DNA of 58,406 bases from a virus. The stretch is from positions 1-58,406 of the IMG/VR virus record IMGVR_UViG_3300042196_000102; one strand, 5' to 3'. Below, one piece after another: positions 9,199 to 35,049 of the stretch (its first letter is position 1; each line of letters opens with the position of its first letter). The notes below the pieces were generated by a model. The model saw only the letters and a list, made by a program, of their open reading frames with translations, was not told where the DNA came from and did not search any database. A program made the translations under genes and the position numbers.

Positions 9199-9210
9199 AC
9201 CTCGCCCTCC

Positions 9211-9245: not shown

Positions 9246-9257
9246 TGGCTCGGGGGC

Positions 9258-9467: not shown

Positions 9468-9483
9468 TTTGGCTTCTCCTTTT

Positions 9484-9861: not shown

Positions 9862-9910
9862 TTCAACATTGCCATCCTTCCATATAAGAGCGACCGCCAT
9901 CCACACATCC

Positions 9911-11164: not shown

Positions 11165-11167
11165 ATC

Positions 11168-13613: not shown

Positions 13614-13615
13614 CG

Positions 13616-15062: not shown

Positions 15063-15073
15063 GTCTAATAACC

Positions 15074-16675
15074 TCACTTTCTGGGCCAGAAAAACCCCGT
15101 GCACGCGCACACAATCTGGGTATTGACGGGTAGTATTCCACCGCTCCCATTGGGCACATTCACGATGTACTCCACCTGCTGCAAGCTGTACACCGGGATG
15201 CCATCGTCCAGGGGGTGCGTCTCACTCAGACTCCCCAGACTCACCAGCACATTCCCCAAGTACTGCGCGTAGGTCCGGTTGATCTTCAGGCGCCACTCAA
15301 TGTCTCCGTTGCCTTCCAAGAACCCCGGCCCCGTATAGTGCTGGGTCAGGCCGTGGATCACCCCATCATAACCCATCGGGATGGTGAACCGGAGCACCAG
15401 CACATCCCCAGCAGCAGCAAGGGGGGTGGGGATGGCCCCGACCTTGCGGAACTCGATGGCCCCCTTTGGCAACCTGACCCACTTGAAATGATCATTGGGA
15501 TCACGGACACAGCACACCGAGCGGGCCGGGATCTGGCGGGCCGGGTCCACTTCTTTCCACAACGAGTGGTCCCAATAGTTGGGGACTAGCACAACCATCC
15601 GACGGCTACCACCTTGGACTTGAGCTGTCAGTGGGGTCGGTGGTGCTGGTACCTCGTTTTCGCTGTAGTATGAGGTGCAGAAGTTAAGGTAGTCATAGGC
15701 AAAGATGTACGCCAGCCCACCATCGGGGCGCACGGTTGGGGGCATTGCGTTATGAAAAGGCTCGTGTGTATCGGGTGGAGTGCAGTTGGTCTGGTCATGC
15801 CAGAGGAATGGTCCGTTGAAAGCCAAACCGTCGTAAGTGAAGTAATACACGCTCAGGTCTGCTGCAAAAAAGATGTATGCTTTACCTCCACCCTCCGTCG
15901 CCATGGGGAGACTACCCTGGATGCCCAGATCCACCATACTGATGGCCGGACTCGTGCTGGTGTATGAGTCCACGATAGCCACACCCACATTACCCGAGGC
16001 CAGTCTACCTGGGATCAGCAGTTTGGAACCAAGAAATGCGGGCCATGCGGACACGTTTGTGGCACCAAATGCCAATGCGACTGGCGTTGTGGCAACACCG
16101 GCGGTAGAGACTTGGATATAGTTGAACGTCTTGGGGCCGCTGTTACCATAAACTGCATGGAGGACCCCGTTCGGGTCTACTCGGCACACCCATACGTTAG
16201 GAGTAGCCACAATGAGCGCCCCAGCTGTCCACGTGTCTGCACCAGGATTGTAGGTCGCCACATTCAGGCTGGTTCCATACGCAACCCGTATAAGACTCCC
16301 CCAGTACCCAGCACCCCACACGGTCAGTGCGTTGGGGCCACCTGCTCCTGTGGTACCCCACAAGTTGGTGGCCATATTGAATGATCCCAAGCGTAATTTA
16401 GAATCACCTTGAGTCGTTACCCACCGGATTACATTGCCATCTTGGAGTTGCGCTGCCTGGAAGGTAGGAGCGTTGCCGATATCTTGTGGGGTCCACGTCA
16501 AGCCGCCATCTACACTCTTGCGAGCTTCCACAATGTCGGTAGCCAGATTGAACCAGATCACGTACCGATCGGTACCCCGGAACCACGGGCCGATTGGGGT
16601 GCCTGAGTATGACCGGAACTGGGTGGTACCAAAATTCACCGTGTCTAGTTGTGACAGAACTGGAAGGCAACTCAT
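15074..16675 (-). CDS. Beta-propeller (BNR/Asp-box) protein with a shared C-terminal domain, paralog 1
   Basis: 533 aa. It has a perfect Asp-box, SVDGGLTW. The C-terminal ~180 aa (PNYWDHSLW ... GYDGVIHG ... GPGFLEGNGDIEWRLKINR ... TGFFWPRK) aligns with 17029-18738 and 19596-20258. Confidence 0.75.
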   Translation of the reverse strand: MSCLPVLSQLDTVNFGTTQFRSYSGTPIGPWFRGTDRYVIWFNLATDIVEARKSVDGGLTWTPQDIGNAPTFQAAQLQDGNVIRWVTTQGDSKLRLGSFNMATNLWGTTGAGGPNALTVWGAGYWGSLIRVAYGTSLNVATYNPGADTWTAGALIVATPNVWVCRVDPNGVLHAVYGNSGPKTFNYIQVSTAGVATTPVALAFGATNVSAWPAFLGSKLLIPGRLASGNVGVAIVDSYTSTSPAISMVDLGIQGSLPMATEGGGKAYIFFAADLSVYYFTYDGLAFNGPFLWHDQTNCTPPDTHEPFHNAMPPTVRPDGGLAYIFAYDYLNFCTSYYSENEVPAPPTPLTAQVQGGSRRMVVLVPNYWDHSLWKEVDPARQIPARSVCCVRDPNDHFKWVRLPKGAIEFRKVGAIPTPLAAAGDVLVLRFTIPMGYDGVIHGLTQHYTGPGFLEGNGDIEWRLKINRTYAQYLGNVLVSLGSLSETHPLDDGIPVYSLQQVEYIVNVPNGSGGILPVNTQIVCACTGFFWPRK

Positions 16676-17022: not shown

Positions 17023-17028
17023 TTCCCT

Positions 17029-18738
17029 TTACCTCCTCACCACCAGCCACCCGGCGATCCCGGCCACGATCCGGGAGTCCACTGGCAAGATCCCCCCGCT
17101 CAGGTTGGGGGCGCTCACGATGTACTCAACCCGCTGCCTAGACGTGATGGGGATACCATCCTCCAAGGGCATAGGCTCTCCCACGCTCCCAAGGCTCACC
17201 AGCACGTCCCCAAGGTACTGGGCATAGACCCGGTTCACCTTGAGGCGCCACTCCAGATCCCCATTCCCCTCCAGGAACCCCGGTCCTGTGTAGTGGTGGA
17301 AGAGGCCCCGGATGATCCCGTCATAGCCCACGGGGACCTCGTAGGCGAAGATGAGCACGTCCCCGGCGGCGGCCAAGGGGGTAGGTATACCTGCGGTACG
17401 GTAGAAAGGGATGGCCCCCTCCGGCATCTCCACGTACTTGAAGTAGTCCGACCGGGCGGTCACGCCACAACAAGCCGACAGGGGCGGTATCTTGCGGTGT
17501 ACGGGGGGGTCCTTCCACAAGCAGTGGTCCCAATAGTTAGGTACCAGCACCACCATGCGGCGTGTACCCGTGACTTCGCGGGCTACCTGTGCCCCCACCG
17601 GATCGGCCCACCTTGCAAATACCGCCGTGCAGAATACGTCCGACTCCAGGGATCCCGTGATACCCAGCGTGCCATCGGAGAGGGGGATGGCGAAGATGTT
17701 GTGCCAGGAGGACTCCTGCGTCCAGGCTGAGGTATTGTAGATGACCTGCTCAGCCCCATACCCAGCCCCGGTGTTGACCTGCCGGATGAGCAGGTTGGTA
17801 CCGAGGGGGGACAAGGCTTGGTAGGTCAGCCACCACACCTCCTCGTTAGTCCCCCGGATCACCACAAAGTAGTGAGTGAAGAGGCAGGAGCCGGGGGTGT
17901 AGGTGGAAGACAGGGCGGCCCCTTGCGCCCACGCGGGGGTGGCGGCATCGCCTGCACGGTACACGTAGAGGACCCCCGCTCCTGCTGCCCCGATCACGAC
18001 CGGCAAAAGCAACAGGGTCGTATTGGGATTCCACGCCCCCACCCCAACATTGCAGAATGGCAGGGCCACCCCGGTGGTCGCAAGGAAGGTGGAATTGGCC
18101 CCCAGTACCCCATTCAGATAAGACCGGTGGTACACAGCCGGGTCCCCGCCCGTCACGGCGTACCAGAAAATGTGAAGCCGGTTGTTGCCACTCTCAATTG
18201 AGGTCAGGATTTGGGGGTCCGTCCCGGCCACGGCCACGTCCACCTGGATGGCCACGCTCCAGGAGGTCGTGAAAGAGTACGTGGCGGCCCACAGGGTTGG
18301 GGCCACTAGGGTTGCATCCCGGAAACAGAAGTCAATATCCCCGTCTGTGCGGAGGTGGCCGTACACGGTGAAGTTGTTAGTCCCGTTGGCCGCTGGACCA
18401 CCCGCCACGATTGCCCCTGCCGTCTCCGTCACCAGATTGAAGGAGGTCAGGTTGATCTCCCCGGCCCCCCCGCCCCCAGTCGCCTGGTGGTAGAGGAAGT
18501 AGAGTATGTCGCCCTTGCGGACCACCGTGCAGGTGGCGCGGGCGATGTTTACTCCAAGGTTCTGCCACGCCGCCCCTACCAACCCATCCGTGCTCTTGAA
18601 GATATGGGACTGGCCGGAACCGGTTGACAGGACCGCAAACAAACTGCCCCCATACTCGTACACCGTCCACGCTTGGCGCCGCTCAAAGTCCCAGTTTTGG
18701 AACCCAGGGTCGATCTGGTAGGGGCCGGTGAAGGGCAC
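17029..18738 (-). CDS. Beta-propeller-like protein with a shared C-terminal domain, paralog 2
   Basis: 569 aa. It has a degenerate Asp-box, KSTDGLVGAAW. The C terminus reads PNYWDHCLW ... VGYDGIIRG ... GPGFLEGNGDLEWRLKVNR ... IAGWLVVRR. Confidence 0.75.
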   Translation of the reverse strand: MPFTGPYQIDPGFQNWDFERRQAWTVYEYGGSLFAVLSTGSGQSHIFKSTDGLVGAAWQNLGVNIARATCTVVRKGDILYFLYHQATGGGGAGEINLTSFNLVTETAGAIVAGGPAANGTNNFTVYGHLRTDGDIDFCFRDATLVAPTLWAATYSFTTSWSVAIQVDVAVAGTDPQILTSIESGNNRLHIFWYAVTGGDPAVYHRSYLNGVLGANSTFLATTGVALPFCNVGVGAWNPNTTLLLLPVVIGAAGAGVLYVYRAGDAATPAWAQGAALSSTYTPGSCLFTHYFVVIRGTNEEVWWLTYQALSPLGTNLLIRQVNTGAGYGAEQVIYNTSAWTQESSWHNIFAIPLSDGTLGITGSLESDVFCTAVFARWADPVGAQVAREVTGTRRMVVLVPNYWDHCLWKDPPVHRKIPPLSACCGVTARSDYFKYVEMPEGAIPFYRTAGIPTPLAAAGDVLIFAYEVPVGYDGIIRGLFHHYTGPGFLEGNGDLEWRLKVNRVYAQYLGDVLVSLGSVGEPMPLEDGIPITSRQRVEYIVSAPNLSGGILPVDSRIVAGIAGWLVVRR

Positions 18739-19023
18739 TCAGCACACCTCCCCGATGGACTCCCCAGCAGCGTGGGCAATGGGTGTGGTACCTTGGTAGC
18801 CCCGTTTGGCCCGCAAGTAGCGGCAGGACCCCCAGTAAGGCCGGATGACCTCTTTGCCGATCCGCAGCAGGAACTCCTTGCCTTGGGGGGGCTGGCCTGT
18901 ACGGGCGGGGAGGCGCTGGTGGTCCGGGATCAGGTGCGGGTCGAAGTAGTCCTCAAGCCGCAGCAACTCGTCGGTGGGGAAGACGGGTAAGGCGAGGGTG
19001 GTCTTGTATGGCAACTCACTCAT
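18739..19023 (-). CDS. Hypothetical protein (94 aa) preceding propeller paralog 2
   Basis: It abuts the downstream gene with no gap. No motif recognised. Confidence 0.55.
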   Translation of the reverse strand: MSELPYKTTLALPVFPTDELLRLEDYFDPHLIPDHQRLPARTGQPPQGKEFLLRIGKEVIRPYWGSCRYLRAKRGYQGTTPIAHAAGESIGEVC

Positions 19024-19029
19024 CCGTCC

Positions 19030-19611
19030 TCATTCTTTACATTGTCTTTTCATGATTGCATGAAACTTTATACGTCTGGCTACCTTGTCGTACAGAGACA
19101 GTAGAGCGCTGTTTGTCTTTTTCTGCTGCGGATTAGTGAATGCGCGTAATATGTAAATACATCTCTCCAGCTCCATCAGTGTAGGCCAAGTGTGTGGCTC
19201 CACGATCCAATCGTCTGCACCAGCTATTAAATCATGAAACTCATGGTCTTCATAGAGCGCCAACAACCGCACATGTAACTGGTATGCACCACCAACAAAA
19301 ATAAAGCTAAAGCATTTGCCGCAACAACTGGAACAGCCGCCATATTGACCTAGACTCAACATTATGGCTGGTCTGCCGCATCGACAGGTAAGAAGCTGCT
19401 TGCCTTGTTCTTCTGTGCAGCCAGTTAGCCTACGCAGGGCTAGTATCTCGTTGTGTCTCTCATGCTCGGCAAAATGGGCACTATACTCGTCCCATCGCGC
19501 CCTCTCCTCGTCCGTCCAAGATAGCACCGTTGGTGGAGCGTGATATTCTGCAAGTTTCTCGTGTTCCGGCATCACAAACACGTCTCTTGGTAGATTCATG
19601 GTCTTGGCCAA
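19030..19611 (-). CDS. Hypothetical Cys-rich protein on a low-GC islet (moron-like)
   Basis: 193 aa. It is markedly AT-richer than its flanks and has the cysteine cluster CRCG...GGCSSCCGKC. Confidence 0.6.
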   Translation of the reverse strand: MAKTMNLPRDVFVMPEHEKLAEYHAPPTVLSWTDEERARWDEYSAHFAEHERHNEILALRRLTGCTEEQGKQLLTCRCGRPAIMLSLGQYGGCSSCCGKCFSFIFVGGAYQLHVRLLALYEDHEFHDLIAGADDWIVEPHTWPTLMELERCIYILRAFTNPQQKKTNSALLSLYDKVARRIKFHAIMKRQCKE

Positions 19612-20258
19612 AACCAGCCGCTAATCGCGCATAGGATACGGCCATTGGGGTCAAGGTGTGCTGCCGCCAGTGGCCCCAAGTTCACCAAGTACTGAATCGT
19701 CTGGTGCGAGAAAATCTGTACCCCCCCGCTCCGCATCTGGCAAGGGGAGGTCAAGTCCCCCAAGCTGGTCAGGATGTTGCCGAAGTCGTAGGCAAACCGC
19801 CGGGACAGCCTGACCCGCCAAGCCAAGTCCCCGCTCCCCTCCACAAACCCCACCCCCAAGAACCGGTTCACCAGTGCCTTGATGATTCCGTCGTACCCGA
19901 CCGGCACCTGGAAGTTTATCACCACATTGTCCACCCCCACGTTGCCGGGTAGGGCGATGGTGTTGATGTATTGGAACCGGCGCCCTTGTGGGGGCATGAC
20001 GTTCCAGGGTGGCACCTCATACCTTGGCCCCTCCACCCGCCTGCACGTCTCCGCCAGCCCCCCACAGCACTGGATGGCCCACCACAGCTCGGCCTCCTGG
20101 TACAAGCACCGGTCCCACATGTTGGGAGGGTGGTGGGAGATGCACGGGTCCTTGGCGTAGTCGATCAGGGATTGGGGCGAGAGGGCCACCTGCCGGGAGG
20201 CCGGGAGCTGGAGGACCGGGTTGAAGAGGGGATTCGGGAGTGGGATGGGGTTGGTCAC
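19596..20258 (-). CDS. Stand-alone copy of the shared C-terminal domain, paralog 3
   Basis: 220 aa from GTG 20258, directly after the upstream TAA. It reads PNMWDRCLY ... VGYDGIIKA ... GVGFVEGSGDLAWRVRLSRR ... ISGWFWPRP. The track start at 20600 lies inside the upstream gene. Confidence 0.65.
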   Translation of the reverse strand: MTNPIPLPNPLFNPVLQLPASRQVALSPQSLIDYAKDPCISHHPPNMWDRCLYQEAELWWAIQCCGGLAETCRRVEGPRYEVPPWNVMPPQGRRFQYINTIALPGNVGVDNVVINFQVPVGYDGIIKALVNRFLGVGFVEGSGDLAWRVRLSRRFAYDFGNILTSLGDLTSPCQMRSGGVQIFSHQTIQYLVNLGPLAAAHLDPNGRILCAISGWFWPRP

Positions 20259-20260
20259 GT

Positions 20261-20818
20261 TTACCTTTGCTCTGGTATGTACCTCTCGCACGGCTCCGCC
20301 GTGAAGATAATCACCTGGCACCTCAAGGCCAGTGCCGAGTCGTTGGCCAACTCCACCGCCAGCAGCCCCGGCTCCAGAACCAAACGGGGCTGTGTAAGGA
20401 GGTGTGGGTGCATGGCATTCCTCTGATCCGTAGCCACATTCTGCAATGTCTGGGCCGCCGTCCCCCTTACAAAGTCCGAGAAGTAAGTCAGGCCGTTGCA
20501 GGAGTCGGTGATCTGCACAAACAGGTTGGTGGCCTGGATGACCGCCCACCCTTGGGCTTCCCCCTCCGCCAGCGAGTACTGGTTGGCCAGCAGGCCCCAC
20601 ACGTAGGAGTTGGGGGTCACACGCACCTGGTACTCCACCGTCCCGTAGGCCGGGATGGGCTGGTTGAAGTCGTCTGGCAGGCAGTAGAACTTGGGGCGGA
20701 AGGTGTTGGCCCGCCGGAGCACGTCCATTCCGGCCAAGGCAAGGGGCATGTACCAGTAGGGCCTAGGCCGGATGGCCGGGTTGTAGATGAAAGCGTCGAT
20801 GGGCGGTTGGAGTCTCAT
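20261..20818 (-). CDS. Jelly-roll-like family member (185 aa)
   Basis: ATG 20818 lies just after the upstream stop. The C-terminal strands PRLVLEPGLLAVELAND...RCQVIIFTAEP resemble those of the neighbouring paralogs. Confidence 0.55.
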   Translation of the reverse strand: MRLQPPIDAFIYNPAIRPRPYWYMPLALAGMDVLRRANTFRPKFYCLPDDFNQPIPAYGTVEYQVRVTPNSYVWGLLANQYSLAEGEAQGWAVIQATNLFVQITDSCNGLTYFSDFVRGTAAQTLQNVATDQRNAMHPHLLTQPRLVLEPGLLAVELANDSALALRCQVIIFTAEPCERYIPEQR

Positions 20819-20820
20819 TC

Positions 20821-21129
20821 CTAGCCCCTCCTTACCAACAGAAGCAGCCCAATAACAACCATGGCTGCAATAACCCACGTGGGGAACGTGGGGACCGGCC
20901 AAGTCGGGCCGGTAGTTACAGTTATACACTGGAATGCATCCGGGTTGGCTGCACAAAAAGCCGCTTGTCTCTCATAGAAACCAGTGGCTTCCCCGCAGCT
21001 CCGGCGGCAGTAGTTTACTTGGGTATATGGTACAGGCATTGCCTCGCAGACGGCTTGGCAGGATTTGAAGCCCTCATCGGTTTTAGGGTAACTGGTGAAG
21101 TCCACCACCTGTCCAATACCTATCTGCAC
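20821..21129 (-). CDS. Cys-rich tail-anchored membrane protein (102 aa)
   Basis: Six Cys lie in the N-terminal ~70 aa. The C-terminal TM helix WVIAAMVVIGLLLLV is followed by RRG. Confidence 0.6.
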   Translation of the reverse strand: MQIGIGQVVDFTSYPKTDEGFKSCQAVCEAMPVPYTQVNYCRRSCGEATGFYERQAAFCAANPDAFQCITVTTGPTWPVPTFPTWVIAAMVVIGLLLLVRRG

Positions 21130-22001
21130 GGCACCCTCCTCACCCCCTGAAACACGATCTGGTACACGGAGTTGAGCATGTTCACCGTCAGCAAACTGGT
21201 GACCTCAAACTGGATCACGCTCCCTCTCCGGTACAGCACACCCGGAACCGGAAAAGTACCATTGTAAGGGTGTGTGGTTGCGTCCGCCGCGTCATTCAGG
21301 ATCACGTCCAGCACCGGAGCACTCATCAGTGGCCGGGGGTAGGTGTCGTACAACATGAGCTTGATCTCGTTGGCAGGAACGCCAAAGTTGTTCACCCCGG
21401 CCCGCTGCAACCTCATCAGTGTAACCCGTTGCAGCTCGAAGTCCATCTCGTCCACCGGCACAATGAACTTCCGAGGTAAGGTGTCCGTGCCAGCCCAGTT
21501 GACCGTGAACTGCGTGGCAGCTTGGTCCCCGTAGCTGAAACCCTTCTCCCAATACTTGTACGAGGAAGGGCCAGGGTAGGCCGTGGCACCGGGGGCAGAC
21601 CCACTGAGGGGCCACCTTCTCACCCCCTGGAAGGCCATCTGCGCAAAGAAGATGGTGACGGCCAAGTTGACCCGGTTCGCACGGGCCACAGTGAACAGGT
21701 CCAAGCCCAATATTCCCTCGGGCTGGATCACTCTCTCGGGGATGATGGGGTACGTGTTGGGCAGGACCACGCCGGCGGAGGCCCCAGTGAAGGGGGCGTA
21801 GTCGTCTTTAATCTGCACCCGGGCACACAGGTTGTTGCGCCCGTAGATTTGACGGAGCACGAAGGCGGCACCGTCGCGGGGGACCACGGCGGGGACGTTG
21901 GAGTAGTTGTTGCCATCCGTCAGGGCGTCCCCGTCGTACACGTACACGTATGGCTGATCGTAGAAGCCTTCCGGGGTCCGGTACTTCTGATCAAGTTTCA
22001 C
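21120..22001 (-). CDS. Tandem-duplicated jelly-roll-like protein (candidate double-jelly-roll capsid protein)
   Basis: 293 aa from GTG 22001, after a GGAAAGAGGCAAGG SD. The two halves each contain D-x-x-F-x-L-(R/Q) and each end in FQGVRRWP or FQGVRRVP. Each half aligns by eye with the 144-aa protein at 23719-24153. Confidence 0.5.
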   Translation of the reverse strand: MKLDQKYRTPEGFYDQPYVYVYDGDALTDGNNYSNVPAVVPRDGAAFVLRQIYGRNNLCARVQIKDDYAPFTGASAGVVLPNTYPIIPERVIQPEGILGLDLFTVARANRVNLAVTIFFAQMAFQGVRRWPLSGSAPGATAYPGPSSYKYWEKGFSYGDQAATQFTVNWAGTDTLPRKFIVPVDEMDFELQRVTLMRLQRAGVNNFGVPANEIKLMLYDTYPRPLMSAPVLDVILNDAADATTHPYNGTFPVPGVLYRRGSVIQFEVTSLLTVNMLNSVYQIVFQGVRRVPCR

Positions 22002-22017
22002 CCTTGCCTCTTTCCTA

Positions 22018-23358
22018 TTACTTGCCCGCCCACGCCCCCGCCGCCTCGCACACGTACAGGCTAGTCCCGGCCCCACCACCATGATTGAGGTAAATGGCCC
22101 CTAGGTTGGTGGCTGTACACAACCCCCCTGCTGGCACCCCAGTCCCTGTCAGGATCTCGGCCTCGCTGGAAAGCCGGATGTCGGCATTGTTGAATGAGTT
22201 CAACTCAGTGGCCCCGGAGCAGACGCCCATGGCGCAGGTGTAGTAAAGATCCAAGCCGTAGTTGAAACCGTGGCCGGCTCCAGTAGTCCGGTCGATCACC
22301 CGAAATCCGGCCCCAATCGGGTTGACCCGCACATTGTCCGTGGTCACGTAGGCGATCACGGCGGCATCGGCGGCGGTGTTGTTGTCGAAGATGGCCCCCA
22401 TGACAGCGCTTGGGTGGTTGGTGACGTTCTGCACTCCCACCCCGTCATTGAGCACACCCAGCACCCCCGTAGCAAATACTCCACCCGCTGCGGCGGTGGC
22501 AGGGGCCACAACATCCAGTTCCCCAACCACGCCATACATCTGCACGGCAGTTCCGGTAAGGTGGCTGGCTACGAAGTTGCCTCCAAACAGTTCCGTGACG
22601 CTGACCGAACCGGCCCCGGTTGTGGCAATACTTTGCGTGCCCACCAGGAACGTACCGGCGCCACCTGTTGAGGTAACCCGGAAGTCCGCCCCCTTGAGAC
22701 TAGTCAGGGTCCCGTAACTCCCTGTCCCTCGCGCCCCGATCACCTGTTGCGATCCCGTCAGCGTGGTCATTACCACCGGGGCTGCGGCGCTGCCGATGTT
22801 GACCGGCCCCGAGTTGCCGAACACGGAGGATCCGGTACCCCCCACGATATTAAGGAAGGGGAAAGCCGCATTGAGGTTGTCCACACTCAGGCTGATCTCG
22901 GCAGCCGCGCTGAAGGGGACGCCAGCCGGTGGCCAGTTGGTAGTGGCCCCGCCCTGATCACTGAAGGTTGTCCCGGCTTGGTTGGCCGCGACCACGCAAC
23001 TGGTGCATGTACCAGCTTGCGGGAATTGAGGTTGGGCTTGCCGTATCACGTAGTAGCCAGTTGCCGCCGACGCAGGTTGCCACGACAGCACCACGAACTG
23101 AGTCCCGCTCAAGTTAGCAATCCCGACCGTGTTGACCACATGCACAGGTCCAGCGGGCAGGCTCAACCCCGAGGGGTAGCGGGCTGCAATCCAGTAGTAC
23201 AAAGTGATGCTGCCTGGATTGCCGGACACCGAACCAGTAGCTCCTTTGACTAGCGCGGGGGCACCTGCGGTAAAAGTCACACTGGAGGCCCGTACCTGCT
23301 GGGCATGTAGGGCAACCGGAAATGTTGCCAGAATCAGTAATACCAAAAGCCGTTTCAT
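22018..23358 (-). CDS. Secreted FN3 plus Gly-rich beta-helix-like protein (spike candidate)
   Basis: 446 aa with signal peptide MKRLLVLLILATFPVALHAQQ. The FN3-like motif is VVLSWQPASAATGYYVIRQ. A long Gly/Thr/Val-rich repetitive region follows. Confidence 0.65.
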   Translation of the reverse strand: MKRLLVLLILATFPVALHAQQVRASSVTFTAGAPALVKGATGSVSGNPGSITLYYWIAARYPSGLSLPAGPVHVVNTVGIANLSGTQFVVLSWQPASAATGYYVIRQAQPQFPQAGTCTSCVVAANQAGTTFSDQGGATTNWPPAGVPFSAAAEISLSVDNLNAAFPFLNIVGGTGSSVFGNSGPVNIGSAAAPVVMTTLTGSQQVIGARGTGSYGTLTSLKGADFRVTSTGGAGTFLVGTQSIATTGAGSVSVTELFGGNFVASHLTGTAVQMYGVVGELDVVAPATAAAGGVFATGVLGVLNDGVGVQNVTNHPSAVMGAIFDNNTAADAAVIAYVTTDNVRVNPIGAGFRVIDRTTGAGHGFNYGLDLYYTCAMGVCSGATELNSFNNADIRLSSEAEILTGTGVPAGGLCTATNLGAIYLNHGGGAGTSLYVCEAAGAWAGK

Positions 23359-23714
23359 TTGCGTTCCTTCTCCTTCTCAGGGGGCTTGGCCGGTTCCTTC
23401 ACCGGCACCCCATTCGATTCCCCCTTGACAGGGGGGCACACAAACTGGAGGGCGTTGTTCAGTTGGCACCCTCCCTGATCGTACTTCACTTTCAACTCCT
23501 CCACCAGCTTGCCCAGTGCGTCCTGGGAGGCACGGAGGTTCAGTTGGGCCTGCAACAATTCCACGTTGTACTGCTGGATGGAGAGCTGGGCTTCCCGGAC
23601 CCGCAGGCGGTCCTCTGGCGCTAGGTCGATGGAAGTTTGCCCATGGAGACGGATTGCCGCCAAGACCAGTCCCAGGACAAGCCCAATCAACGCCAGTGTG
23701 CCCAATGCCCGCAT
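23355..23714 (-). CDS. Signal-anchored coiled-coil protein (119 aa)
   Basis: ATG 23714 gives MRALGTLALIGLVLGLVLAAI, followed by a coiled coil (QLSIQQYNVELLQAQLNLRASQ). The track start at 23879 overlaps the upstream gene. Confidence 0.55.
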   Translation of the reverse strand: MRALGTLALIGLVLGLVLAAIRLHGQTSIDLAPEDRLRVREAQLSIQQYNVELLQAQLNLRASQDALGKLVEELKVKYDQGGCQLNNALQFVCPPVKGESNGVPVKEPAKPPEKEKERK

Positions 23715-23718
23715 GGTC

Positions 23719-24153
23719 CTACCTTTGCGGCCTCGGTAAGTGATACCGCTTGGCCCCCCGGAACAGAATCTGGATCGTGTTCCCGGCATTCGACAAATCC
23801 TGGATCTCAATCCCCAACCTCGATCCAGCGGGCAGCAACAACTCTGGGAAGATGGGGTACGGGTAGGGCACGGCCCCACTCAGGAAGTTGCCAGACAGAA
23901 TGAACCCGCTTGACAAGTAGTACCCTTGCGAGTCCGAAAACCTGATACTGAACGCCCCGGTGTTCTGGGACAGAATGACGGCGCGGAGGGCAAAGTCACT
24001 GTCCACGTGGATTGGGACGGCCTGGTCCCTCAACTGTTGCAGGGCGGTGAGGGTGATGTCGTAGACGTAGGTGAAGTCCACATCAATGTATCCCTCGGGG
24101 AACTGCTCCGCCGCATTTACCCCTGCCAAGACCGGGGTGGCGAATGGATTCAT
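23719..24153 (-). CDS. Single jelly-roll-like protein (candidate penton/vertex protein)
   Basis: 144 aa. DSDFALRAV, YPIFPELLLPAGSRLGIEI and ILFRGAKRY match the motifs of each half of 21120-22001. Confidence 0.5.
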   Translation of the reverse strand: MNPFATPVLAGVNAAEQFPEGYIDVDFTYVYDITLTALQQLRDQAVPIHVDSDFALRAVILSQNTGAFSIRFSDSQGYYLSSGFILSGNFLSGAVPYPYPIFPELLLPAGSRLGIEIQDLSNAGNTIQILFRGAKRYHLPRPQR

Positions 24154-24321
24154 GACTCAATCCTCCTTTACCCTTACCTCTTACGATTGCGAAAAAGGCC
24201 CCCGCCCCGCCCTGGAAAAGCAAGGCGGGAGCACCATAAGTGGAGGCTGCACACTACTCCGAAGAAGCTCTTGCCAAACCCTGACCCGTCAGCCTCCCGC
24301 CAAGCCAGGGCCGCCCGCAGG

Positions 24322-24981
24322 CTATTGGATGCCCCGAGCGTGGAGACCGTCGAGCAGGCACATCAGTGCCAGTCCGGTCCCCAAGGTTTGCCCACCAGCC
24401 GCCACCAGCGTGTAGGCATTCCCCGTCAACTGTGCGTAGAACTCCATCTGGTTCTCAATCACGATGGGGATGGCCAGCCGGTGCATGTGATCCCGGCCCG
24501 GCACCCCGTTGGTGTACAGGGCGATGGCGGGGATGGCCGCGATGGTGAAGGCGTTCAGCCCGCCGCCGGCGTTGTAGTGCCAGAGAGGGCCGGTGTTGTA
24601 GGCTTTCTGCCCCAGGAACAACTGGAAGGCAAAGCCCCAGAGGATGGCCAGGATATCGGCCAACACGATGTTTTCCTCCCAAGCCAGCCGGATGGCGAAG
24701 GCCGAGAAAGCCTCGGGAGCCGGGAGCCGGCGCGACTGGGTGAGGTTGGTCTGAGCGAGGGTCTTGCCACTTGCAGGCCCCACGTTGGTGAAGAAGGCGG
24801 TCGAGAGGGCAGTCACCTGGGCGCCCGCCGCCAGCGTCACAGTGTCATACAGAGGCTCGTGTTGGATGTCCATTTGCCCCTGGATGTACACTTGGCTCTG
24901 GAAGGCGTCCAGGATCATCACCTGCTGCGGCGTAAGCTGACTGGCCAGCGCCGCTCTCTGTGCTGCGTAATTCTGGGTCAT
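24322..24981 (-). CDS. Hypothetical structural protein (219 aa, probable jelly-roll-like family member)
   Basis: EAFSAFAIRLAW, IPIVIENQMEFYAQL and LLDGLHARGIQ echo the family motifs. It is followed by the 168-bp non-coding gap 24154-24321, which has GC-rich hairpin potential and a T5 run. Confidence 0.45.
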   Translation of the reverse strand: MTQNYAAQRAALASQLTPQQVMILDAFQSQVYIQGQMDIQHEPLYDTVTLAAGAQVTALSTAFFTNVGPASGKTLAQTNLTQSRRLPAPEAFSAFAIRLAWEENIVLADILAILWGFAFQLFLGQKAYNTGPLWHYNAGGGLNAFTIAAIPAIALYTNGVPGRDHMHRLAIPIVIENQMEFYAQLTGNAYTLVAAGGQTLGTGLALMCLLDGLHARGIQ

Positions 24982-25018
24982 GGTCTGTCAATTCTCCTTT
25001 CGAGAGTTTCGGGTGCCC

Positions 25019-26035
25019 CTAGAAGGCGGCACCGAAGGCGCGGCCAATGCCGCTGGCGTTCACTCGGGGCGCAGGGGGCATGGGCATACCCGCCATGATG
25101 GGGTTCTGTGGAACCGGGAATGAGGCATCCGCAAAGGCCCCCAACCCGCTGATCCCCAAAGCCCCCGCCACAGAAGGCAGGAATGCGTTGAGGGCGGTCG
25201 AGCCGGTCTGCATCAGGCCACCGAACAGCACTGCGTCTCCGAAATCCTTGTTGACCTTGCCCGCCACCCAGCCAGCGATGAACGCGGATACGCCGGTGGT
25301 GACCGTGCGCATCAGGTTCGAGCTGACCAGTTGGGACGGGAGCAAGGTGGGGATGAACTTGGCTGCGGCAACTCCGACCAAGCCCCCACCGATTGCGGAC
25401 AGGGTTTTGGTTGCGGAGACACCGACACCAAATGAGAGTTGCGGGTTGCGCCGGCGACGACGCCCGTACTGGACGTTGCGACGACGGGAAGTCCTGCGCC
25501 GATTGCGGCGACGTGGAGCCGTGACCACCACCCGAGTGGCGTTTCTCCGGCTCCGACGACGATGGCGCGGATTTGCTACTGCACGCTTTCTGCGTCTGTG
25601 TCGAGCCACGATTTTCTTTCTCCTTTTTGTTGGGTTCACGGCTCCCAGGGTTACGATCAGAGCCGGGTTGGTGCGCTTCCTTCTCTTCGGATTCTTCCGG
25701 GAGCGACGTTTGCGCGTTGCTTCGCCTGCACGCTTTTTGTTGTAGTCGTAAGATGCACGGATGGGATGGAAAATCCCCTCCTCATCGTAGAATCCTGCGG
25801 CCACATTCCTGCGGCGCCGGCTGCGGTGCCCCTTGGCAGCTATCTTGCGTTTGCGGCTGCCATACCGGGCGCTGTTTCGGCGTTTCAGCGCGGCTTTCTG
25901 CGCCTTGGTGCCAAAATGCTTGATCTGCTTGGCGGTCATGTTCCGGCGGCGGTGAGCGTTCCGTTTCCGGGCACGCTTCCTGGCCCGCTTCCGGGGGTTT
26001 GAGACCAGCCTGCGGGTTCGTATTACTGTTGCCAA
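25019..26035 (-). CDS. Arg/Lys-rich DNA-condensing-type protein with a Gly/Ala-rich hydrophobic C-terminal domain
   Basis: 338 aa from TTG 26035, 4 nt after an AAAGGAGGGG SD. The N-terminal ~200 aa is dominated by runs such as RKRARKRARKR, RSRRRRN and RRRRRNP. The C-terminal ~130 aa is Gly/Ala/Leu-rich and membrane-like. Confidence 0.7.
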   Translation of the reverse strand: MATVIRTRRLVSNPRKRARKRARKRNAHRRRNMTAKQIKHFGTKAQKAALKRRNSARYGSRKRKIAAKGHRSRRRRNVAAGFYDEEGIFHPIRASYDYNKKRAGEATRKRRSRKNPKRRKRTNPALIVTLGAVNPTKRRKKIVARHRRRKRAVANPRHRRRSRRNATRVVVTAPRRRNRRRTSRRRNVQYGRRRRRNPQLSFGVGVSATKTLSAIGGGLVGVAAAKFIPTLLPSQLVSSNLMRTVTTGVSAFIAGWVAGKVNKDFGDAVLFGGLMQTGSTALNAFLPSVAGALGISGLGAFADASFPVPQNPIMAGMPMPPAPRVNASGIGRAFGAAF

Positions 26036-26249
26036 TTTGCCCCTCCTTTCAGGGGATTCTCCCCCGGCCTTTTTGGGGTCCAGGGTCAGCCAAGAAAGCG
26101 AAAGGGCCGCCGGAAGACCCTTTGAACCCACGCCCGTGAGTTTACTTGGGTCTTTCCAGCGGCCCTTTGGCCAAAGCCGCTTTCCTGGTTGTGCTGCTAA
26201 TCCCCTTATCCTACCCCGTCGAGTAGGGCGGGGGAACCTTCAAAACTCG

Positions 26250-26513
26250 TTACACCTCTGCCTCCCCCGTCTTCCCTTTGGCCTTCCCCTTCCGCGTGGA
26301 GACAAGCTCCTCCACGATCTGCTCTTGGCGCTCGGTGAGGGGCTGGTCCGCTACGGGAGGGGCAAGGTCCGGGTGGGCCTCGTACAATTCCCCCAGGGTT
26401 GGGTACACCGGAGACCAGCAGTGGCACTGGACCGCCGACTCGTTGAGCCGGAAGCCGACTCGGTAGCCGCCGGCGGGGCCGGGGAGAGGTTGGATGGACT
26501 TTATCATAGCCAT
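26250..26513 (-). CDS. Hypothetical protein (87 aa)
   Basis: It contains LTERQEQIVEELV, near-identical to the LuxR-type regulator's N terminus, but lacks the HTH. Confidence 0.5.
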   Translation of the reverse strand: MAMIKSIQPLPGPAGGYRVGFRLNESAVQCHCWSPVYPTLGELYEAHPDLAPPVADQPLTERQEQIVEELVSTRKGKAKGKTGEAEV

Positions 26514-26584
26514 GAGTGCGTTGCCTCCTGTAGTATAATTGCTGATGGGGATAGGCTGGAGTCGCCCTCCAAGCTGAATGCCCG

Positions 26585-27322
26585 ATGGCTCCGAACATTG
26601 GCTTCCCCCCTAGTAAATTCGGGTGTCACACGGAGGTGATGATGTACACGAAAACCTGCCTCTGGTGTTCTACGGCTTTCACAACAGTCAGAAAGAAGAG
26701 GATCTACTGCTCCAAACGATGCAGCTTGGTCCACAGAAACACGAAACCAAGGGATGTGGTCTATGTAACAAAACCTTGTGCCTACTGTGGCAAGTTGTTT
26801 GAGAGCCGGAGATGCCTGCATAAAATTACCTGCTCGTTGAGTTGTCGCACATCCTACAATAACACGGTTCCGGTGGAAACTAGATTGCTGTCGAGAATAC
26901 AAATTGACCAGTCCACCGGCTGCTGGAACTGGCAGGGCCACTTGAGTGTACTTGGGTACGGCAAGATTTCGCGTGATGGTAGACTCCAGACCGTGCATAG
27001 AGTTTCCTACGAGATAAAGTACGGAAAGATCCCATCCGGCCTTGAACCAAACCACAAGTGCAGGAACAGGGCATGTGTCAACCCCGATCACATTGAAGCT
27101 GTCACGCATCAACTCAACATCTGGTATGCTAGGGGAATCACAAGCACGCACTGGGGTTGCGGCCATGAAAAGACGAGTCCAAACTCCAGGACGACTAGCA
27201 GTGGCTCTATCGTATGTGGGATTTGCGCCAGAACAAAAGAGAGAGAGAGATACCGCAAGGACCCCGAGAAGTACAAGGCCCGAGTGGCGGCAGTATACTA
27301 CAGAAAAAAGGCTAGTCGATAA
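26585..27322 (+). CDS. HNH homing endonuclease (HNH_3-like) with N-terminal Zn fingers
   Basis: 245 aa on the opposite strand, at lower GC. The pattern is CWNWQGHLSVLGYGKISRDGRLQTVHRVSYE...HKCRNRACVNPDHIEAVTHQLN, plus CLWC...CSKRC and CAYC...CSLSC. Confidence 0.85.
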   Translation: MAPNIGFPPSKFGCHTEVMMYTKTCLWCSTAFTTVRKKRIYCSKRCSLVHRNTKPRDVVYVTKPCAYCGKLFESRRCLHKITCSLSCRTSYNNTVPVETRLLSRIQIDQSTGCWNWQGHLSVLGYGKISRDGRLQTVHRVSYEIKYGKIPSGLEPNHKCRNRACVNPDHIEAVTHQLNIWYARGITSTHWGCGHEKTSPNSRTTSSGSIVCGICARTKERERYRKDPEKYKARVAAVYYRKKASR

Positions 27323-28808
27323 GGCCTGGTGATTCTGCACGATATACCCCTCCTGTGATGCTGAGCAGCTTGCTTCTCGGGCTATAAAGTAACAACGGTT
27401 GATAACCAGATTCTTCCCCAAGCTTGTGCACGTAGTCACTCAACTCAAAGTTGTCAAACTTCTTTCGGGCTTGGTACACAAGCGATGTTAACACGCCCAA
27501 CACCATTGAGTCCTTGATGAACTTGGGACTATCCATCTTAAGATCCCGCAGACTTACCTCCTGATCGCCTCCCTCCACATAGAGTTGCCGCCCGTCCTCG
27601 GAGGCGGCCAAGTACGGGGCGTCCTTGTTGAACCGGATCGTGGCGTCCAGGCCGGAGAGGGTGGCCACCTTCAGCTCCACGAGGGTCCCGAGGGTGGCTA
27701 GGTACTCGTGCTCATGGACCTCGGTTTCCACGGTGGTGACGTGCTCGGCTGGGGCGCCGGTGAAGCCTTCGACAAGGGTGGCAGCAGAGGACTCGGGGTT
27801 GCGCTTCACACTCGCCGCGCCTCTACGAAATGCCTTTTCCCAGTCCGAAAGCCCATAACCACTGGGTGTGGGTCGAGTCCGACCCCAGCCAGCAGTAAGG
27901 TCTGCAGTCTCTCTGTCGTACCATTCAGCATACGCAACATTGATTGGACCAACACCACCACTTAGACGCCAACGCTTGCCAGCCTCGAAGGGTATGTCAA
28001 TGTTGCTGTCGTCGGGGTTGGTCCTCTTCCGCGCTTCCCTTTCCCGCGTCTCGGCGGGATTCCACCTCACCACCTTCGCGGGTGGCACATCCTCCAAGTA
28101 CTGATCCCCGCTGGTGCCGGGCCGGATGTCCACCATGGTCATCCTAACCGTGCCCACCGGAGTTACTTGGGACCCCATGCTGCTCACACTCACCCGGTAT
28201 CCCAACTTACGGAGGGTGGAGGCACGGGCCTTGATGTCCGGGTCTCCTGTTTCGTAGGACTCCTGAATCCAGTCCCGGCCACGGGTTTGGAGGGCAGCGG
28301 GATTCTCTACAGGATTGCCAGTTGGTTTGTAGAGAATATCCCGGTGACCGTAACCAGCAGGACCCAGACTGCGGATTCTGAGTTGTGGATGCCCCTTCTC
28401 AGCCAACTCAAAAAGCCTATTCCAGTCGGAAGCCCATAGGATCACGTTGTCGGGTGTAACATGGATCTCAATACCATCCACTTCGCGGACGTACTGTGGA
28501 CGTGGATTCCTTCTCCCCGGCACCACCGTAGCGTACTCCTTGTACCGTGGGGACTTCTGCCTGAACCTCCAGTAAGTCGCCCCCTTGTCCACCTTCCCAC
28601 TCACAAACCCGTGGTCCCGGAGCCACTTCTGGGCCTCCCCGATACCCCACTTCACCTTGTCAAAGATCACTGACTGGACTTCGGACACCCGCCTGCCCGC
28701 CTTGCGTGCGATCCCCAGCACAAACTTGATGCCCTCGTCCGGGTTGGCAAGCTGGGACACCCAGACCTCAGTGTCAACATGGTGGCATAGGCTTGACCTA
28801 CGCGGCAT
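27312..28808 (-). CDS. Large hypothetical virion-block protein (498 aa)
   Basis: ATG 28808 gives MPRRSSLCHHV. It looks modular, with segments separated by basic-x-N-P linkers (RRNPRP, RWNPAE, RTNPDD, KRNPES). No ATPase or portal motifs seen. Confidence 0.7.
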   Translation of the reverse strand: MPRRSSLCHHVDTEVWVSQLANPDEGIKFVLGIARKAGRRVSEVQSVIFDKVKWGIGEAQKWLRDHGFVSGKVDKGATYWRFRQKSPRYKEYATVVPGRRNPRPQYVREVDGIEIHVTPDNVILWASDWNRLFELAEKGHPQLRIRSLGPAGYGHRDILYKPTGNPVENPAALQTRGRDWIQESYETGDPDIKARASTLRKLGYRVSVSSMGSQVTPVGTVRMTMVDIRPGTSGDQYLEDVPPAKVVRWNPAETREREARKRTNPDDSNIDIPFEAGKRWRLSGGVGPINVAYAEWYDRETADLTAGWGRTRPTPSGYGLSDWEKAFRRGAASVKRNPESSAATLVEGFTGAPAEHVTTVETEVHEHEYLATLGTLVELKVATLSGLDATIRFNKDAPYLAASEDGRQLYVEGGDQEVSLRDLKMDSPKFIKDSMVLGVLTSLVYQARKKFDNFELSDYVHKLGEESGYQPLLLYSPRSKLLSITGGVYRAESPGLID

Positions 28809-29442
28809 TGTGAAGCCTCCCGGCAACCAGTGACTTGTCAAACAGCCTCTTACTTGCGTTAGTGTAGAAGTCGTACCTACCCGTCCCACTACGGTCCTCG
28901 GCATATTTGAATGTGGCCGCGTATCCGCTCTCCCGTAACATACGTTCAACATACTCTGCTACTACCTGGTCCATGTCGGTGGTGGCAGGCAACCTGAACT
29001 TGTGACTATAGTTCACACCCCTAAACTCCGGGTTCGCCTTCCCCTTCCCCCACTCCCCAATGAACCTCTTGGCCTCCACCGGCGTGTCAAACCGGCTCTC
29101 CGGGTCAATCGAGGGCACCATCCACCCCCCAGCAGAGGGTAGGATGTCGTGCCCTTTGTGGCGGGTGGGCCGACCACGCGGGACCCCGGCGGCAGAGGAG
29201 GAGGCGGGGGGCCGGGTGACTCCGTGGCCACCCAGCATACCGAACAGGGACTCGGAGCGGGCACGAGCGAGGCCAAACGGGTTACCCTTGCCTCTCCTTT
29301 TGCGCCTTCGCCCCAACACCCCCGCAGCCAGCGCCAACTCCTCCTCCAGCAATCCAGGGCCGGGGGTGAGCAGCAGGGCGGCAAGGTCGGACTGGTTGGC
29401 CTTGAATTGCACCCTGACACGTCTTGTGGCTGTCCTGCTCAT
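28798..29442 (-). CDS. Hypothetical basic protein (214 aa)
   Basis: ATG 29442 overlaps the upstream TGA (ATGA). It contains RRRKRRGKGNPFG and KGKANPEF. Confidence 0.6.
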   Translation of the reverse strand: MSRTATRRVRVQFKANQSDLAALLLTPGPGLLEEELALAAGVLGRRRKRRGKGNPFGLARARSESLFGMLGGHGVTRPPASSSAAGVPRGRPTRHKGHDILPSAGGWMVPSIDPESRFDTPVEAKRFIGEWGKGKANPEFRGVNYSHKFRLPATTDMDQVVAEYVERMLRESGYAATFKYAEDRSGTGRYDFYTNASKRLFDKSLVAGRLHNAA

Positions 29443-29711: not shown

Positions 29712-29712
29712 G

Positions 29713-30411: not shown

Positions 30412-30420
30412 AAGTCCTCC

Positions 30421-35048: not shown

Positions 35049-35049
35049 C

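Follow-up and report, generated by a model that had tools for sequence, protein, structure and literature searches.

The window, a stretch of 58,406 nucleotides analysed at its full length, carries a 127-bp terminal repeat and is thus a complete genome. A block of minus-strand genes in the order p370-p219-p144-p293-p185-p207 recurs unchanged in each of the 19 related loci whose length allows gene order to be read (contigs of 15-68 kb, plus one of 358 kb); complete or near-complete contigs of the group are about 44-68 kb. The first protein, p370 (25019..26131), has an arginine-rich N-terminal part with RRRNP-type repeats and a Gly/Ala-rich hydrophobic C-terminal part; its position immediately upstream of p219 is constant, and its C-terminal part is conserved in all loci. 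Upstream of p370 is p546 (27312..28952, minus strand), a modular protein with a conserved C-terminal domain and relatives of 414-1493 aa, for which neither Pfam nor PHROG gave a match. The next three genes encode p219 (24322..24981; 219 aa), with N-terminal helices and one predicted jelly roll, p144 (23719-24153; 144 aa), a predicted single barrel, and p293 (21120-22001; 293 aa from a GTG), a predicted tandem two-barrel protein. The ORF of p293 is open as far as an ATG at 22082, and its relatives have 282-295 aa.

Two minus-strand features of the block are particular to the window. An insertion between p144 and p293 (22018..23717) holds p174, which is probably 120 aa with a start at 23717 and has a TM helix, and p446, a fibre-like protein with a signal peptide; in related locus L001, homologs of both are found 8 kb downstream of the block, with p144 and p293 next to each other. 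Between p293 and p185 lies p102 (20821..21129), which is Cys-rich with a C-terminal TM helix. The conserved block protein p185 (20261..20818) is syntenic and 36-60% identical in relatives. The last gene, p207 (19596..20258), encodes a stand-alone domain of about 180 aa, with HMM matches in all loci, that also ends p569 (domain at 17029..17568, minus strand; N-terminal part with a sialidase-like Asp-box motif) and p533 (domain at 15074..15619, minus strand). Fibre-like genes form a long row after the block, some with Sec-type signal peptides.

The initial annotation held that the 293-aa protein consists of two homologous halves and that the 144-aa protein aligns with either, and both claims stand. 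Single-sequence comparison related p144 to the N-terminal half of p293 (BLASTP E=1e-7, 27% identity over 135 aa; Smith-Waterman z = 12 against shuffles), with z values of 3.7 for the N-terminal against the C-terminal half and 3.6 for p144 against the C-terminal half. Profile-profile comparison with hhalign, using families built from at most 62 sequences, matched p144 to the N-terminal half (probability 98.6%, E 8e-16, 116 columns) and to the C-terminal half (97.1%, E 7e-11, 122 columns), and the two halves to each other (96.1%, E 3e-9, 118 columns); controls with unrelated proteins gave E values of 0.01-0.9. A server profile comparison of p144 with p293 gave 97.4% and E 1.3e-11, and the three motifs tabulated for the halves and p144 fall in the same alignment columns. 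The paralogy of p144 and p293, as judged from their sequences, is robust.

A family as wide as had been proposed lacks statistical support. For p219, p185 and the C-terminal regions of p207, p533 and p569, said to carry "weaker versions" of the motifs, hhalign gave E values of 0.07-0.8. Profile comparison detected no sequence kinship of p219 with p144 or p293, so that p219 belongs with them by its predicted jelly roll and not by sequence, and hhalign found no link of p185 to p144, p293 or p219. The three C-terminal paralogs are true paralogs of one another by tblastn and BLASTP (p207 and the last ~180 aa of both p533 and p569), and it is their connection to the p144/p293 motifs that fell away, p207 and p144 being unrelated in profile comparison. 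A p144-p207 match (z 4.3) involved a proline-rich stretch at a non-equivalent position, was absent from seven other genomes, and was put down to chance.

Modelling with AlphaFold and comparison by Foldseek, the check proposed for p293, gave two all-beta domains (pLDDT 86.1, pTM 0.84) and capsid proteins of double-jelly-roll (DJR) type in 38 of the top 50 PDB matches, with TM scores of only 0.2-0.3. The N barrel spans about 21603-21980 and the C barrel about 21129-21566 (minus strand). The PDB matches include PRD1 and PR772 P3, grouper iridovirus and PBCV-1 (probability up to 0.97), and the best two BFVD matches are the capsid proteins of an ascovirus and of tectivirus GC1; tail and fibre proteins also appear in the BFVD list, with E values from 1e-3 to 1e-2. 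The top DJR matches have E values of 1e-4 to 2.5e-5 and low TM scores: every superposition on a DJR capsid protein gave TM 0.22-0.29 and rmsd 17-20 A, and no match exceeded TM 0.30. Either the barrels of p293 are placed differently from those in proteins of PRD1 type or the alignments have slipped in register, and the side-by-side packing that defines the DJR fold family is without support from the model. Of the proposed DJR major capsid protein with its penton, the two predicted barrels, the DJR best matches and the adjacent single-barrel paralog thus held up and the superposition did not. The alternative of TNF/C1q-like domains found no support for p293 or p144, with no such fold among the top 50 PDB matches of p293. 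The predicted p144 is essentially a bare barrel without a stalk.

The 219-aa protein, initially given only minor weight, is better conserved and more widely spread than any other protein of the block. It has 323 clusters at 90% identity and 854 representatives at the 50% level, and identity between the window and relatives, distant genomes included, is 41-60%. No match was found for it in Pfam or PHROG. Its AlphaFold2 model (pLDDT 80.7, pTM 0.71) has weak Foldseek matches to C1q/TNF-like folds and to SPV1/SH1 capsid chains, the latter (E 0.045-0.08, TM about 0.3) no better than the former. Between p219 and p144 lies a minus-strand terminator-like hairpin (24198..24232) of 16 pairs, 10 of them G-C, followed by CTTTTT; it is the best terminator-like site in 13000-30000, and in relatives the corresponding spacer is structured and 175-270 nt long, several having a hairpin and T-run. 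By its conservation, its 854 clusters and this hairpin, p219 is a candidate major capsid protein at least as good as p293. The latter is the least conserved and fastest evolving of the three jelly-roll proteins, with a mean pairwise identity of about 33% versus about 50% for p144 (33-76% across relatives); its rate is equal in both barrels, and a word-indexed search gave 49 clusters, with diverged copies in every related locus. Such a rate, above those of p144 and p219, is not what a major capsid protein typically shows.

The 84 ORFs of the whole genome match 25 Pfam families, with no family for capsid, portal, terminase, tail or packaging ATPase among them, and the same holds for the 25 PHROG families listed of the 79 matched by the whole ORF set. 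PHROG scans of 20 structural-region and large ORFs gave best E values no lower than 0.02. Across all six frames there are only three P-loops, those of VapE, AAA_24 and a helicase. The initial annotation was therefore correct that an A32-like ATPase is missing, and the conventional capsid gene that it had set against its own reading was not found when HK97 capsid protein, portal and terminase were sought throughout the complete genome. Many membrane proteins are encoded, including at least nine C-tail-anchored proteins, some of them conserved in relatives; the ORFs left unassigned mostly encode membrane, signal-peptide or low-complexity proteins. A lysis cassette, an integrase and a related copy on a Bryobacteraceae contig point to a temperate bacterial virus.

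The earlier observation is thus partly confirmed and its interpretation partly supported. Since the usual tailed-phage capsid and packaging genes are absent, p293, p144 and p219 are probably the shell proteins of a widespread, undescribed tailless kind of virus; we give about even odds to the fuller statement that they are the conserved core of a virion-shell module in an uncultivated group of non-tailed temperate bacterial viruses. What is observed is the paralogy, the strictly kept gene order and the lack of genes for HK97, portal, terminase and A32, and the barrel folds of all three proteins are predictions from models; from these we infer their presence in the virion and the geometry, stoichiometry and membrane of the shell. 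On this reading, tandem duplication and fusion of a p144-type barrel gave p293, so that p293 contributes two barrels per chain and p144 one. The barrels would tile an icosahedral shell enclosing a membrane and, within it, DNA that the arginine-rich, membrane-anchored p370 condenses into a core. The p293 chains might form pseudo-hexameric capsomers with p144 at the vertices, as in PRD1, or p144 and p293 might co-assemble as small and large subunits, as in P23-77; in both options p219 would be a third shell component, probably the most abundant. Points against the shell reading include the poor superposition of p293, its rapid evolution, the tail and fibre proteins in its BFVD list and the lack of a match to P23-77 VP16 and VP17. 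The absence of any known packaging ATPase is also uncommon in the two known kingdoms of jelly-roll viruses, and the Sec-type signal peptides on some of the fibre-like genes fit no simple virion model.

An unlikely arrangement, though one with several points in its favour, has p219 alone as a single-jelly-roll major capsid protein, and a vertex complex in which p144 would be the penton base and p293, penton-like with its two barrels, would carry or anchor the spikes encoded downstream. PRD1 P31 and P5 offer an analogy, as the N-terminal part of P5 resembles P31. The conservation and spread of p219 agree with this arrangement, as do the rapid evolution of p293, the fibre-like p185, p207, p569 and p533 directly downstream, and the ~210-aa paralogs gp45 and gp46 that hold the p219 position in phage SSIP-1; the hairpin, the strongest in 17 kb and with similar structures in relatives, agrees with strong expression of one gene and weaker expression of those after it. 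However, the capsid matches of p219 are weak and do not rise above C1q/TNF, the best matches of p293 are hexon-type capsid proteins rather than penton or spike, and equal rates in its two barrels give no obvious exposed domain.

We consider it improbable that the genome is that of a tailed phage with HK97, portal and terminase genes too divergent for HMMs, the trio then being decoration, baseplate or receptor-binding proteins (including TNF/C1q-like ones). In its favour, phage cement, tail and fibre proteins often contain jelly-roll domains, tail and minor-tail proteins are among the BFVD matches of p293, p219 finds its best PDB matches in C1q/TNF/BC2L-C folds, a long fibre-like array follows the block, relatives encode beta-helix and GH172 enzymes, and several large ORFs are without assignment. 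Against this, Pfam and PHROG scans of all ORFs of at least 390 aa showed no match to terminase, portal, capsid, tail tube or tape measure, a fourth P-loop was not found in any frame, the leftover ORFs are mostly of the kinds named above, p144 is little more than a barrel and lacks a stalk, and the top 50 matches of p293 include no C1q/TNF fold. The least probable reading makes p293 a canonical DJR capsid protein (Bamfordvirae) forming trimeric pseudo-hexamers, with p144 as penton. Foldseek probabilities of 0.9-0.99 to the PRD1, PR772, GC1, iridovirus, ascovirus and PBCV-1 capsid proteins, a length close to that of the smallest DJR proteins known, and the adjoining single-barrel paralog all fit, but the poor superposition, the missing A32/FtsK-type ATPase and the lower conservation of p293 relative to p144 and p219 do not. 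The two barrels of p293 are also still alike in sequence, which to our knowledge those of known DJR proteins are not.

The shell reading can be compared with four known systems. PRD1 (Tectiviridae), with its DJR major capsid protein P3, penton P31 and spike P5, provides the best structural matches of p293 and shares a one-barrel partner protein and membrane proteins within the same module; it differs in the superposition (TM 0.22-0.26, rmsd about 18 A) and in its A32-type ATPase, and the genome here is about four times larger. We know of no sequence similarity between the halves of P3. In Sulfolobus polyhedral virus 1 (Portogloboviridae), a jelly-roll shell and a membrane occur together with a basic protein that condenses the DNA, and a packaging ATPase is not recognisable, a combination that p370 and the missing ATPase suggest here. 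Its capsid chain 6oj0_Z weakly matches p219 (E 0.045); the virus is archaeal, with a genome of 20 kb, and the resemblance is functional only.

The VP16 and VP17 genes of P23-77 (Matshushitaviridae, Helvetiavirae) are adjacent, small then large, and encode 173 and 291 aa, compared with 144 and 293 aa here; VP16 consists of a single vertical barrel and VP17 of two barrel domains (PMC4958249). An internal membrane is present in the virion, as proposed for this group, and a small and large capsid protein arrangement of this kind fits the sizes equally well. Profile comparison with VP16/VP17 gave E 0.012 or worse, and they are absent from the top 50 structural matches of p293. P23-77 has a 17-kb genome with a packaging ATPase just upstream, whereas here the upstream gene encodes a third predicted jelly roll and the barrels are related to one another in sequence as paralogs.

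The layout of the group also resembles that of the phage SSIP-1, which contains a membrane and comes from another host phylum and habitat. SSIP-1 has two ~210-aa paralogs where there is one here, the reverse order of small and large proteins, and a virion protein with a P-loop, gp40, to which nothing in the block here corresponds; profile comparison of p144 and p293 with gp47 and gp48 gave nothing. The gp43-gp44-gp45/46-gp47-gp48 block is collinear in sizes with the block here, the counterparts being the ~210-aa gp45/46 for p219, the ~256-aa gp47 (halves weakly alike, E 0.002, z 3.7) for p293 and the ~132-aa gp48 for p144. The p219 profile ranks gp46 first among 57 SSIP-1 proteins, and its match to gp45/46 is borderline (hhalign E 9.5e-4, probability 22%, 143 collinear columns). 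Both systems have a large genome for a tailless phage and lack similarity to other GenBank phages. Both also encode a giant protein followed by one with a hydrophobic Gly-rich part, the ENP/QNP motifs of SSIP-1 recall the RNP motifs of this genome, and the transglutaminase-like protein with a C-terminal TM helix encoded here resembles the SSIP-1 virion protein gp34 (BLASTP 1e-4), which shares that architecture.

The protein p293 (21120-22001; numbers in protein names are lengths in amino acids) and its neighbour p144 (23719-24153) were initially annotated as relatives, with p144 homologous to each half of p293, and this central claim is right, well beyond chance. As single sequences, p144 and the N half of p293 match with a BLASTP E=1e-7, and Smith-Waterman comparison with shuffled sequences gives z values of 12 for p144 and the N half, 3.6 for p144 and the C half, and 3.7 for the two halves. 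When families were assembled from database homologs and the sequences of 20 related loci, hhalign aligned p144 with the N half (probability 98.6%, E 8e-16, 116 columns), p144 with the C half (97.1%, E 7e-11, 122 columns), and the N half with the C half (96.1%, E 3e-9, 118 columns), each alignment covering the whole domain; controls with unrelated proteins gave E 0.01-0.9. A second profile comparison, using a server tool, matched p144 to p293 at 97.4% and E 1.3e-11. The motifs by which the family was first recognized (D-x-x-F-x-L-R, the P-x-h-h-x-P-G strand, and the F-x-G-V-R-R end) fall in the same alignment columns. By these profile comparisons, p293 is an internal duplication with halves still alignable at E 3e-9. 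Profile comparison does not support widening the family to p219, p185, or the C termini of the three paralogs p207, p533, and p569 (E values of 0.07-0.8). An apparent p144-p207 similarity (z 4.3) is a chance match of proline-rich sequence, present in the window genome only, and was discarded.

The window begins and ends with an exact direct repeat of 127 bp (1-127 and 58280-58406), and is therefore a complete genome of ~58.3 kb, either circular or terminally redundant, with nearly every gene on the minus strand. In transcription order the region, all on the minus strand, begins with p370 (25019-26131), p219 (24322-24981), and p144, followed by an inserted pair, p174 and p446 (22018-23717), that separates p144 from p293; after p293, the insertion p102 (20821-21129) separates it from p185 (20261-20818), which is followed by p207 (19596-20258) and then by the propeller-like p569 and p533, each ending in a ~180-aa paralog of p207. 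The order p370C-p219-p144-p293-p185-p207 is kept in all 19 related loci that are long enough to include it (L001, L003-L008, L012-L018, L020-L022, L025, and L028; contigs of 15-68 kb and one of 358 kb), and six loci cut by contig ends (L002, L019, L023, L024, L026, L027) have the same order as far as their contigs extend. Only in the window genome do p174, p446, and p102 interrupt this otherwise invariant block; p174/p446 homologs lie 8 kb downstream in L001. The 358-kb contig (L028, JAXLQN010000013.1, a Bryobacteraceae MAG) has the whole block at ~9000-15200, near one end, which suggests an integrated Acidobacteriota provirus, a chimeric contig being the alternative. In one relative (L024) the p219 gene is followed ~9 kb downstream by a second, diverged p219-like ORF (13329-14030, HMM E 2e-17). 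Between p546 and p370, on the opposite strand of the window (26585-27322, +), an HNH endonuclease ORF lies in a patch of low GC (0.556 vs ~0.61) and looks like a homing-endonuclease insertion into the structural module.

The spacer between p219 and p144 (24154-24321) is 168-270 nt long and highly structured in all relatives (L001 9345-9543, L003 9277-9542, L007 10604-10872, and others). It carries terminator-like hairpins, the conserved palindrome TTTAGAGTCTAAA, and then the hairpin GCCGCTTGCATGACCGGGGCGG; the best terminator-like hairpin within 17 kb is directly after p219. The spacer may be an attenuator or a regulatory RNA.

The AlphaFold2 model of p293 (48-sequence alignment, pLDDT 86, pTM 0.84) has two all-beta domains of ~8-9 strands each. 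Most of its Foldseek matches in the PDB are double jelly-roll (DJR) capsid proteins, including P3 of PRD1/PR772 and those of grouper iridovirus and PBCV-1, at E values near 1e-4 and probabilities of up to 0.97; the two-barrel proteins PHM and botulinum HA70 are also matched. In BFVD the best matches are an ascovirus capsid protein (2.5e-5) and a tectivirus GC1 capsid protein (3.5e-4). Over the whole chain every match superposes poorly (TM 0.2-0.3, rmsd 17-20 A) despite the pTM of 0.84, so the topology class is supported but a DJR-type packing of the barrels is not. The check suggested at the outset, modelling p293 and searching with Foldseek, thus returned two barrels and predominantly DJR matches, but superposition at TM 0.22-0.29. 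The other initial suggestion, of TNF/C1q-like receptor-binding domains, finds no counterpart in p293, which has no C1q or TNF chain among its best 50 PDB matches, or in p144, which is predicted to be a bare barrel. The p219 model (59-sequence alignment, pLDDT 81) has N-terminal helices and one jelly roll, with weak matches to C1q/TNF/BC2L-C folds (E 6e-3 to 0.1, TM 0.22-0.28) and to the capsid chains of SPV1 and SH1 (E 0.045-0.08); it has no collagen-like or coiled-coil stalk.

Pfam and PHROG scans of ten proteins of the region gave no match, none of 40 remote p219 relatives could be placed in a PHROG family, and p219/p144/p293-type proteins are, as far as these profiles reach, covered by no PHROG or Pfam family. 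The search of 50,697 GenBank phages by tblastn with p293 and p219 gave chance matches only (E of 2 or more), PDB sequence searches with a 642-aa ORF and the p293 and p219 profiles gave nothing useful, and the p293 profile had no match among genome representatives. A search of the literature found no description of this virus group.

The hallmark genes of other bacterial viruses were looked for throughout the window. Scanned together, its 84 ORFs match 25 Pfam families, none of which is a capsid, portal, terminase, tail, or packaging ATPase family, and none of these is present among the 25 PHROG families listed of 79 matched by the whole ORF set. Twenty structural-region and large ORFs scanned singly, including all eight otherwise unassigned ORFs of at least 390 aa, have no PHROG match better than E 0.02. 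Pfam and PHROG searches of all ORFs, which are sequence methods, found no HK97-fold capsid protein, portal, or large terminase, and hence no conventional capsid gene elsewhere that would count against a jelly-roll capsid. The initial remark that an A32-like ATPase is missing is borne out for FtsK/HerA-type packaging ATPases by Pfam on the 84 ORFs, by the listed PHROGs, and by a P-loop scan of all six reading frames, which found three P-loops only, all in replication or recombination proteins. The AAA_24 protein (53190-53990) is unlikely to be a packaging ATPase, given its place among the recombination and replication genes. The replication module is ordinary for a phage (split family-A polymerase, UDG-exonuclease, DinG-like helicase, VapE, AAA_24, ERCC4, and methylase), and the window also encodes a lysis cassette and a tyrosine integrase (3750-4436).

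The morphogenetic region is rich in membrane-associated proteins. At least nine small C-tail-anchored proteins end in one TM helix and a short basic tail, including those at 20821-21129, 29439-29711, 30025-31070, 32851-33489, 33793-34635, 35372-35833, and 35835-36554; some are conserved in relatives, and one of the set is a transglutaminase-like protein with a C-terminal TM helix. The protein p370 has an extremely arginine-rich N part and a hydrophobic, conserved C part, and may condense the DNA. The motif (R/K)(R/K)-N-P recurs at module boundaries in p370, in p546 (27312-28952), and at 28798-29628 and 34632-35234, and is found just before the jelly roll of the remote p219 relatives P0226, P0284, and P0293, of which P0226 is on a contig too short to show its neighbours; gp41 and gp44 of SSIP-1 (L009), a membrane-containing tailless phage, have ENP/QNP in its place. 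The motif might mark processing sites; reovirus mu1 undergoes Asn-Pro autocleavage.

Fibre-like proteins are encoded in a row in the same region. Of those in the late region, at least eight (6268-6900, 8362-9369, 9911-11164, 11168-12460, 12433-13332, 13616-14026, 14013-15110, and 22018-23358) start with a Sec-type signal peptide or signal anchor, mostly followed by Gln. Virion proteins that assemble in the cytoplasm would not be expected to carry such signals, and no model considered here explains their presence. The distal fibre region of relatives encodes a GH172/DUF2961 protein and a beta-helix protein (L004 18253-19680; L001 17176-18597), which are probably depolymerase-type receptor-binding enzymes. 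GH172/DUF2961 is a cellular double-jelly-roll family according to the title and topic of PMC8812541.

We prefer an interpretation, with about an even chance of being correct, in which p219, p144, and p293 belong to the shell of a tailless virus that probably contains a membrane, and in which p293 arose when a p144-type barrel was duplicated and fused. The predicted folds, the paralogy, the synteny, and the lack of hallmark genes are direct results of the analysis; from there we infer that all three proteins would be present in the virion, that it would have a membrane, and that p370 would condense its DNA. The geometry of such a shell could take several forms. The first proposal was a canonical arrangement with p293 as the DJR major capsid protein and p144 as the penton: p293 has two consecutive barrels in one chain by model, duplication, and Foldseek matches, and a one-barrel paralog, p144, is a candidate for the vertex and is encoded close by. 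This assignment is possible but not favoured, because the superposition is poor, the A32 ATPase is missing, and p293 is less conserved than both of the others. Conservation is highest for p219 (41-60% identity between the window and relatives), followed by p144 (~50% mean pairwise) and p293 (~33% in both halves). The protein p219 is also far more widespread than p293: at 90% identity the same word-indexed search finds 323 clusters for p219 and 49 for p293, whose contigs reach 54-61 kb, and an exhaustive search finds 854 p219 representatives at 50% identity. An arrangement with p219 as the major shell protein and p144 and p293 at the vertices is a less likely variant. It is more doubtful still that the genome belongs to a divergent tailed phage in which p219, p144, and p293 would have accessory or receptor-binding roles. 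The BFVD matches of p293 do include tail and fibre proteins (1e-3 to 1e-2), and fibre-like genes follow the block, but the scans for portal, terminase, and tail families were negative. Should the proteins prove to be tail or fibre parts, they would be unremarkable paralogs in a highly divergent phage.

Beyond the assignment of shell proteins, we tentatively propose that the window belongs to a lineage, widespread and so far undescribed, of large temperate bacterial viruses that have no tail but contain a membrane (complete or near-complete contigs of about 44-68 kb) and are distantly akin to SSIP-1. Their shell would be built of three jelly-roll proteins, a p144-type single barrel would have been duplicated and fused into the two-barrel p293 with the record still detectable in sequence, and the genome would be condensed by the arginine-rich, membrane-anchored p370-type protein and not pumped by any known packaging ATPase. 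There is a substantial chance that this is a new and widespread lineage that preserves the step from single- to double-barrel capsid proteins. To our knowledge, the origin of DJR proteins from single-barrel proteins is a long-standing question that has so far been argued from structures alone; since the single barrel and both fused halves can be aligned (E 1e-9 to 1e-15), these proteins, if they do form the shell, would open the duplication to direct study. Tailless bacterial jelly-roll viruses would in that case reach 58 kb and beyond, including in soil phyla such as Acidobacteriota; marker-based detection would miss them, as they lack a terminase, an HK97 capsid protein, and an A32 ATPase. 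The combination of an arginine-rich membrane-anchored protein with no packaging ATPase would also suggest an assembly route undocumented for bacterial icosahedral viruses.

Two known systems invite comparison. In P23-77 the small capsid protein has one barrel and the large has two barrel domains (PMC4958249). A pair of genes for a one-barrel small and a two-domain large protein, as in Helvetiavirae, is found here judging from models and profiles: VP16 and VP17 are adjacent and 173 and 291 aa long, and p144 and p293, at 144 and 293 aa, have the same order and similar sizes. VP16/VP17 have no hhalign similarity to p144/p293 (E 0.012-0.68), the capsid proteins of P23-77 and SH1 (VP16/VP17, VP7/VP4) are absent from the best 50 Foldseek matches of p293, and SH1 chains are touched weakly by p219 only (E 0.08), not by p293. 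In Helvetiavirae a packaging ATPase gene is just upstream of the capsid pair, whereas here that place is taken by p219, a jelly roll without a P-loop.

SSIP-1 (PMC6356626, PMC6260650, PMC5332951) is a tailless orphan phage of 43.8 kb; its virion has an internal membrane and a T=49 shell with capsid proteins of two types. Its structural block encodes gp43 (2319 aa), gp44, gp45 and gp46 (210 and 211 aa), gp47 (256 aa), and gp48 (132 aa), which correspond by size and order to p546, p370, p219, p293, and p144, the order of the p144 and p293 counterparts being reversed. Comparison by hhalign of p144 and p293 with gp47 and gp48 was not significant. The p219 profile ranks gp46 1/57 among SSIP-1 proteins, and its hhalign E with gp45/gp46 improved from 0.03 to 0.0032 to 9.5e-4 with deeper profiles (143 collinear columns, probability 22%); the SSIP-1 profile is shallow, with one relative only found for gp46, and this similarity suggests homology but is not proof. 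The halves of gp47 (L009 36043-36813) resemble each other (BLASTP E 0.002, z 3.7) as those of p293 do, an internal duplication that may be previously unreported. The transglutaminase-like protein matches the SSIP-1 virion protein gp34 (BLASTP 1e-4). The two genomes thus have a collinear block and common virion accessory proteins, and, if the kinship is true, the viruses described here would be the first relatives of SSIP-1.
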